Below, piece by piece: positions 42,633 to 43,459 of a DNA stretch of 64,000 nucleotides. The position numbers were made by a program, and so were the translations under genes. Source of the stretch: Escherichia coli (lineage in GTDB: Bacteria; Pseudomonadota; Gammaproteobacteria; Enterobacterales; Enterobacteriaceae). The notes beneath the pieces are model-generated. The model was given only the letters and a program-made list of their open reading frames with translations, did no database searches and was not told the origin of the DNA. The stretch lies in assembly GCF_003018255.1 (NCBI RefSeq), contig NZ_CP027440.1. One strand, 5' to 3'. Each line of letters starts with the position of its first letter. Position 1 is the first letter of the stretch.

Positions 42633-42938
42633 TAAAAAAAGGCCCCTGTTGAAATTGCAGGGGCCTGGTACGAGCAAGCATCATATTGGGCGACATGATG
42701 CAACGGTAAAAATCATTTGGCCTGATGGCGTTCAATGATTCCTTTCATTTCAGCAACCGCCGCCCCGTCTACGACATAACGCGAATACTCGTCCGCGTGT
42801 GCATCTGATGACATGGACAATCCTTGATTACGATAACGCATCGGTGAGGCTTGCCACGCTCCCGCGGAGCTATGGACTTCCAGCACTCCGGCATCGAGGA
42901 AGTGGTGCAGGTTTTCCGCACGGACTCCTGCTCCGGCC
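42633..42938 (-). ncRNA. micL: MicL sigmaE-dependent small RNA, embedded in the cutC 3' region and 3' UTR
   Basis: Strong minus-strand terminator just past the cutC stop (GGCCCCTGCAATTTCAACAGGGGCC plus T-tract, plus strand 42634-42666). A sigmaE-like promoter inside cutC (GGAACTT, 16-nt spacer, CTCCAA, plus strand about 42946-42974) is spaced to give a transcript of about 306 nt. Confidence 0.55.
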
Positions 42939-43459
42939 ATAATGATTGGAGCATCACGATGGGCAATAAGTTCCATAATTTTTGATAAACCTTGCAGTGC
43001 GTCTGATTTTTGCCCTGATGTCAGTACCCGGGCAATGCCCAATTCCGCAAGATTATTGAGTGTATTTAAAGGGTTAGCGCACATATCGAAGGCGCGATGA
43101 AAAGTCACGGCCAGCGGACCGGCAGCAGCCATTATTTTTTCCATTCGTGGCATATCGACATTCCCGTCAACATCGAGAACGCCCGTCACCAGTCCAGGAA
43201 AACCTAATTCGCGGACTGTGCGCACATCCTCAAGAATGGCGGCAAATTCACCGTCGCTGTAGCAAAAATCACCACCGCGTGGGCGAATAATAGGATGCAC
43301 AGGGATCGTCACCCGCTGGCGTACGGATTTCAGTACCCCCAACGACGGCGTTAAGCCCCCCTCTTTTGGGGCTGCGCATAATTCAACTCTGTCTGCGCCG
43401 TTTTGCTGCGCCGTTAGCGCGCATTCCATGCTGTAACAGCAAATTTCCAGTAATGCCAT
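42713..43459 (-). CDS. cutC: Copper homeostasis protein CutC
   Basis: 248 aa [39 protein letters not shown]... Confidence 0.85.
42945..42975 (-). promoter_or_regulatory. Candidate sigmaE promoter inside cutC coding sequence (MicL promoter)
   Basis: Minus strand aattatGGAACTTattgcccatcgtgatgCTCCAAtcatt. Confidence 0.45.

Follow-up and report, generated by a model that had tools for sequence, protein, structure and literature searches.

The 3′ end of cutC in the stretch of Escherichia coli DNA analysed here (64 kb, hereafter the window) raises the question of whether a protein-coding sequence also holds the gene of a regulatory RNA and, if so, which of its nucleotides serve that RNA. A preliminary description, made from the letters of the window, had placed a MicL-type sRNA at 42633..42975, bracketed by a sigmaE-like promoter inside cutC and a terminator beyond its stop codon. 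The host gene was taken from the ORF list as a 248-codon ORF on the minus strand (cutC, 42713..43459, stop TGA at 42715..42713) and corresponds to cutC (b1874) of K-12 by mapping to that genome. Its neighbours on the same minus strand are yecM upstream and torY (41225..42325, also from the ORF list) and torZ downstream, and the order torZ-torY-cutC-yecM-argS around the locus is the same in K-12, where micL is annotated.

A whole-window Rfam scan matched RF02654 (MicL) end to end at 42941..42634 on the minus strand (model positions 1-308 of 308), with a score of 371.4 bits (E = 4.2e-112; gathering score 56). The K-12 ncRNA micL (b4717), which overlaps the 3′ end of cutC, maps to 42634..42940 (-). 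By the end-to-end Rfam match and this mapping, the sRNA proposed as MicL-type is micL itself; the interval first proposed falls on b4717, as a comparison with the annotated gene was to establish, and extends 1 nt beyond the unit at either end. It is very nearly certain that the locus is micL of Escherichia coli, the gene of a sigmaE-driven sRNA inside cutC that represses Lpp, and no observation made here speaks against this identification. The gene is already known, since it was described in 2014 and has curated entries in both Rfam and the K-12 annotation, and there is nothing new at the locus; its identity and anatomy, the conservation of the promoter and of the processed form MicL-S, and the complementarity of the seed were computed in this analysis. 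Rfam matches elsewhere in the window comprised the overlapping antisense sRNAs SraC/RyeA and SdsR/RyeB at 7417..7561 (+) and 7421..7520 (-), both full length (176 and 114 bits), C0465 at 56187..56264 (+; 103 bits), which K-12 mapping places just upstream of tar, in the opposite orientation, and ES036/CssrF at 38656..38698 (+), just past the torZ 3′ end by K-12 mapping, with 45.5 bits, not far above its gathering score of 37.6.

The window aligns colinearly to positions 1915684..1981327 of E. coli K-12 MG1655 at approximately 97.5-97.9% identity. MicL and its promoter (42634..42985) differ from K-12 at three single bases (42775, 42801 and 42917), all of them within the coding-embedded body of the RNA and two of them altering CutC residues; the promoter and the last 80 nt (MicL-S) have zero differences. 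The CutC protein differs at three residues (window residue first: N132Y, A220E and V229I), of which A220E and V229I fall within the MicL body; the residue changes sit at window positions 42775, 42801 and 43066. A 401-bp region was present at ≥95% identity in 5424/5426 complete E. coli genomes. In the best 10 matching RefSeq complete E. coli genomes, cutC was the sole annotated feature across 42600..43000, so that micL, which is annotated in K-12 MG1655, is apparently missing from those 10 pipeline-annotated records. Three further departures from K-12 were seen along the window: approximately 770 bp (1961799..1962568; yecV, yecT) are replaced by approximately 40 bp at 45991..46031, the IS1H upstream of flhD in MG1655 (1978503..1979270) is absent at 61944..61951, where the alignment blocks overlap by 8 bases, and approximately 125 bp between nudB and aspS (1948618..1948742) are missing at 32935..32936.

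The primary transcript was placed at 42634..42941 (-), a length of 308 nt, from RF02654, K-12 b4717 and the published start. [quoted passage not shown] 2014), which is 42941 in the window, the same position as given by Rfam; mapping of RefSeq micL gives 42940. The start had earlier been put near 42938, which is a few nucleotides off, and the distance of about 306 nt from promoter to terminator was roughly right, the actual product measuring 308 nt (42941..42634). MicL shares its first 228 nt with the final 76 codons of cutC, stop included, and the remainder is the cutC 3′ UTR. Folding of the 308-nt RNA gave a minimum free energy (MFE) of -115.3 kcal/mol (z = -3.3).

Upstream of this start, within the cutC ORF, the minus strand reads GGAACTT (42974..42968), 16 nt (42967..42952) and CTCCAA (42951..42946), present as the preliminary description had stated. 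From the sequence and a motif search, the -35 element GGAACTT of the promoter PmicL was assigned to 42968..42974 (-; cutC codons M162, E163 and L164) and the -10 element TCCAA to 42946..42950 (-; codons A170, P171 and I172). When GGAACTT-N15-17-TCNAA was searched on both strands, its sole match in the 64-kb window was this one, at 42974..42946. The chance expectation is 0.09 matches per window, with at least one match in 9/100 shuffles, and the promoter motif by itself is weakly significant (P ~ 0.09 in 64 kb). In K-12, PmicL has been defined experimentally by rpoE overexpression, a GFP fusion and point mutants, and a minimal PmicL fusion is induced by sigmaE (PMC4102768). Since the promoter in the window is identical to that of K-12, transcription in the source strain would likewise be expected to depend on sigmaE.

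For comparison between genera, 56 cutC loci were used, one genome per species, 46 from Enterobacteriaceae and 10 from an outgroup. RF02654 scored above threshold in 46/46 Enterobacteriaceae loci (including Escherichia, Citrobacter, Salmonella, Trabulsiella, Pseudocitrobacter, Lelliottia, Leclercia, Kluyvera, Kosakonia, Franconibacter, Siccibacter and others) and in 0/10 outgroup loci (Morganella, Edwardsiella, Limnobaculum and non-proteobacterial genomes), where scores in distant genera partly reflect protein-coding homology because the model includes cutC coding sequence. The promoter and the 3′ UTR were analysed separately to get round this. GGAACT[T/A]-N17-TCCAA stands at the homologous place in 44/46 Enterobacteriaceae cutC loci, and a relaxed form of the motif was found in 0/10 outgroup cutC loci; the promoter, for which a lack of conservation in related genomes had been named as one point that would count against it, is thus conserved. 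Both of the remaining loci, from Citrobacter amalonaticus (L009 and L051), have TGAACT in place of GGAACT at about locus position 1984..1990, which changes codon 162 from ATG to ATT; their -10 element and MicL-S are intact, and C. amalonaticus may have a weaker PmicL.

The coding-embedded body of MicL was assessed in a codon alignment of 44 intact Enterobacteriaceae cutC genes, in which 150 codons were evaluated. Extra synonymous constraint over the body, as a sign of a second function, was sought in this alignment and none was found: mean codon entropy is 1.41 bits over codons 174-222 (MicL body) against 1.22-1.36 bits upstream, in the 5′ half of cutC. Two alternative-frame ORFs, of 65 aa at 42769..42966 (-) and of 55 aa at 42571..42738 (+), were considered and neither was supported; the former begins upstream of the MicL start.

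The body could nonetheless be translated in the cutC frame itself. A start at 42941 is followed directly by an ATG (42940..42938, -) in the cutC frame, codon M174, so that the 5′ end of the RNA reads U-AUG, and the RefSeq micL 5′ end is the A of this ATG. The 308-nt MicL would then double as an mRNA, leaderless or with a 1-nt leader, from which the C-terminal 75 residues of CutC would be made under sigmaE induction. The first three nucleotides of MicL are unpaired in the MFE fold, and a discussion of leaderless translation of MicL was not found in the literature searched. If this were true, micL would be a dual-function RNA, and the otherwise unconstrained 228-nt body would gain a purpose. M174 is, however, kept in outgroup cutC genes that are without the promoter, so the protein accounts for the ATG; Lelliottia (L027) has ATT at the M174 position while the promoter is retained, and codons 174-222 are without unusual constraint. 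The 75 terminal residues of a TIM-barrel-type fold are, moreover, unlikely to be stable alone. Translation of MicL is for these reasons considered very unlikely, and the locus is read further as an sRNA gene nested in cutC.

Even less probable, and hardly to be credited, is that cutC contains no internal promoter at all, the sigmaE-like motif being there by chance and the sRNA being only processed from the 3′ end of a yecM-cutC mRNA in the manner of CpxQ. The motif statistics given above leave some room for a chance match, and Guo et al. note that cutC mRNA can also be a precursor of MicL-S (PMC4102768). The codon alignment argues otherwise. Glu163 is encoded by GAA in 44/44 genes and Pro171 by CCA in 44/44, and these are 2 of just 3 zero-entropy codons among the 150 (hypergeometric P = 0.0016). 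Both sit in the -35 and -10 cores, and the neighbouring synonymous sites vary freely, as does the spacer between the two elements, which is highly variable across loci. In the outgroup cutC genes the Glu-Leu and Pro residues are kept at these positions with other codons in use, and the motif is absent from cutC of Morganella, Edwardsiella and Limnobaculum despite the retained E, L and P residues. The frozen codons GAA163 and CCA171 are the signature of a promoter superimposed on the reading frame. Published GFP fusions, PmicL point mutants and the resistance of the 308-nt RNA to TEX (PMC4102768) also stand against a purely processed RNA, which the promoter mutants have already refuted for K-12; the frozen synonymous sites and these mutants together exclude it, and PmicL is accordingly retained as the promoter of micL.

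The 80-nt processed and active form MicL-S, as defined in PMC4102768, occupies 42634..42713 (-). Its fold of -28.8 kcal/mol (z = -5.2) consists of stem-loop A, a single-stranded seed, and the terminator hairpin with its U tail. Stem-loop A (MicL-S nt 13-36; 42678..42701, -) was located by folding. RNase E together with Hfq cuts at the 5′ end of MicL-S, and the position of the cut is set by two adjacent 3′ stem-loops, of which stem-loop A is one (bioRxiv 10.1101/341578, Updegrove et al.). The intrinsic terminator (42634..42666, -) was identified by direct folding and is at the same time the Hfq-binding 3′ end of the RNA, the latter according to PMC4102768. Its stem joins 42666..42658 to 42648..42640 in 9 bp, 7 of them G-C, around a 9-nt loop (-17.7 kcal/mol); it is followed by a run of seven T at 42640..42634, the first of which closes the stem, and then by A at 42633. 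The hairpin begins 47 nt past the cutC stop. The very strong terminator that had been noticed just past this stop is therefore real, being a 9-bp G+C-rich hairpin with U7 that ends at 42634. A generic terminator scan of the window left it unreported because the scan takes loops of 3-8 nt and this 9-nt loop exceeds the limit.

Between genera, MicL-S (80 nt to the end of the T run) has a mean pairwise identity of 0.91, compared with 0.58 for the next 80 nt, a value that is roughly the background of the alignment scheme used. Both MicL-S hairpins keep standard pairs in 100% of 426 cells, over 22 distinct sequences. All 11 pairs of the stem-loop A helix remain standard in these, with 5 pairs varying on one side only, and in the terminator, where pairing is likewise 100%, 2 pairs show compensatory changes in Franconibacter and Siccibacter. 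The motif GTACCAGGCCCC is invariant in the 22 MicL-S sequences, as is most of stem-loop A. In loci beyond Escherichia, Citrobacter and Salmonella (L022-L036, L040-L042 and L056), the cutC stop precedes the conserved UUUUUACCG, at which MicL-S starts, by 2-11 nt; because of this offset, cleavage at the cutC stop codon itself is specific to the E. coli group. The terminator region of the cutC 3′ UTR in Edwardsiella (L045-L047) reads AAAAAGTACGGCCCCA...TGGGGCCCTTTTTT, which bears a faint likeness to GTACCAGGCCCC...GGGGCCTTTTTTT of MicL; both the sigmaE motif and the Rfam match are absent from these loci, and the resemblance could be an ancestral terminator or a coincidence.

The seed UGCUCGUACCAG (MicL-S nt 38-49; 42665..42676, -) pairs with coding nt +16 to +28 of lpp. 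As lpp lies outside the window, pairing was computed on the K-12 gene, whose 5′ region is conserved at ≥99% identity in 5424/5426 E. coli genomes. The seed duplex (MicL-S nt 37-50 with lpp +15..+29) has an energy of -17.9 kcal/mol, equalled or bettered by 10/1000 dinucleotide shuffles, and its predicted place is the published lpp site; GTACCAG, opposite lpp +16..+22, is the longest stretch of Watson-Crick pairs. An unrestricted duplex of the whole MicL-S with lpp came out at an unrealistic 77 nt and ignores intramolecular structure, and the seed-restricted calculation was used instead. In K-12, pairing of MicL-S nt 38-49 with lpp +16 to +28 has been confirmed by compensatory mutations, and lpp was the sole target found by RNA-seq and ribosome profiling (PMC4102768). 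That the conserved 3′ UTR is a mere terminator or stability element of cutC mRNA with no trans-acting role, as might be supposed from its holding the cutC terminator, has next to no probability left, because conservation far exceeds what a terminator needs (80 nt at 91% between genera, with GTACCAGGCCCC and the stem-loop A sequence invariant) and published compensatory MicL-S-1 / lpp-1 mutants refute it (PMC4102768), the single-stranded seed being complementary to lpp at an experimentally validated site.

The 308-nt MicL of K-12 is sigmaE-dependent and is processed to the 80-nt MicL-S, and both forms are bound by Hfq (PMC4102768). By analogy with these K-12 experiments, and with promoter and MicL-S identical, sigmaE dependence, processing, Hfq binding, repression of lpp and the copper phenotype can be expected to apply to the locus in the window. 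Under envelope stress or at entry into stationary phase, sigmaE RNA polymerase would start at 42941 from the promoter within the cutC frame, cross the last 76 cutC codons and end at the cutC terminator, yielding the 308-nt MicL. RNase E and Hfq, guided by the two adjacent 3′ stem-loops, would then cut inside the cutC stop codon and release the 80-nt MicL-S (42713..42634). Nucleotides 38-49 of the Hfq-bound MicL-S would pair with codons 6-10 of the lpp mRNA, blocking its translation and leading to loss of the mRNA, with less Lpp, the most abundant outer-membrane lipoprotein, being made. A lower Lpp level would be predicted to ease the load on lipoprotein and outer-membrane assembly and so to feed back on sigmaE.

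Both functional statements of the preliminary description agree with the K-12 literature. Repression of lpp by MicL is published for K-12, whose promoter and MicL-S are the same as in the window, and the suggestion that an RNA may encode part of the copper phenotype formerly ascribed to cutC is established there: copper sensitivity of cutC mutants is due to the loss of MicL and to excess Lpp, and the same phenotype is seen in a synonymous PmicL mutant but not in a 5′ cutC deletion that keeps MicL (PMC4102768).

The overlap with cutC had been estimated as the last 230 bp of the gene, in which any mutation was held to alter two genes. The overlap exists, but its extent is larger, since 226 nt of transcript together with the promoter up to 42974 amount to approximately 260 bp. 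Selection is visible only in the 80-nt 3′ UTR and in both promoter hexamers, and is not seen in the coding-embedded body. Most mutations in the body alter the sequence of MicL, and to that degree two genes are affected, as claimed; MicL function is probably unaffected by them, because the body has no extra synonymous constraint and because 5′ sequences are without effect on MicL cleavage and processing, as Updegrove et al. report (bioRxiv 10.1101/341578). The parts sensitive to mutation are the 3′ UTR and the pair of promoter hexamers. This matters in practice when cutC is deleted or mutated in strains whose records show cutC alone, since PmicL and the body of an RNA that regulates Lpp lie within the final ~260 bp of the gene.

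Among known systems, the closest is MicL of K-12 (RyeF; RF02654; b4717), which occupies the same locus, the cutC 3′ end and the cutC-torY spacer. Its sigmaE promoter sequence, 80-nt MicL-S, seed, stem-loops and terminator are all the same as in the window, and it differs at 42775, 42801 and 42917, all in the coding-embedded body. MicA and RybB are free-standing intergenic genes, whereas micL lies within a coding gene and its RNA undergoes processing. Like MicL, they are sigmaE-induced, Hfq-binding sRNAs that shut down very abundant outer-membrane proteins, but jointly they target 31 mRNAs including the major porins, and MicL has one reported target (PMC4102768). The 3′ UTR-derived CpxQ (from cpxP) and DapZ (from dapB) share, as MicL does, their terminator with the host mRNA. 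CpxQ is without a promoter of its own, whereas DapZ, like MicL, is transcribed from one within the coding sequence of its host. Release by RNase E is shared by CpxQ, and a pair of neighbouring 3′ stem-loops, the arrangement found in MicL-S, is predicted for sRNAs of this kind (10.1101/341578); MicL can additionally be cut from its host mRNA (PMC4102768).
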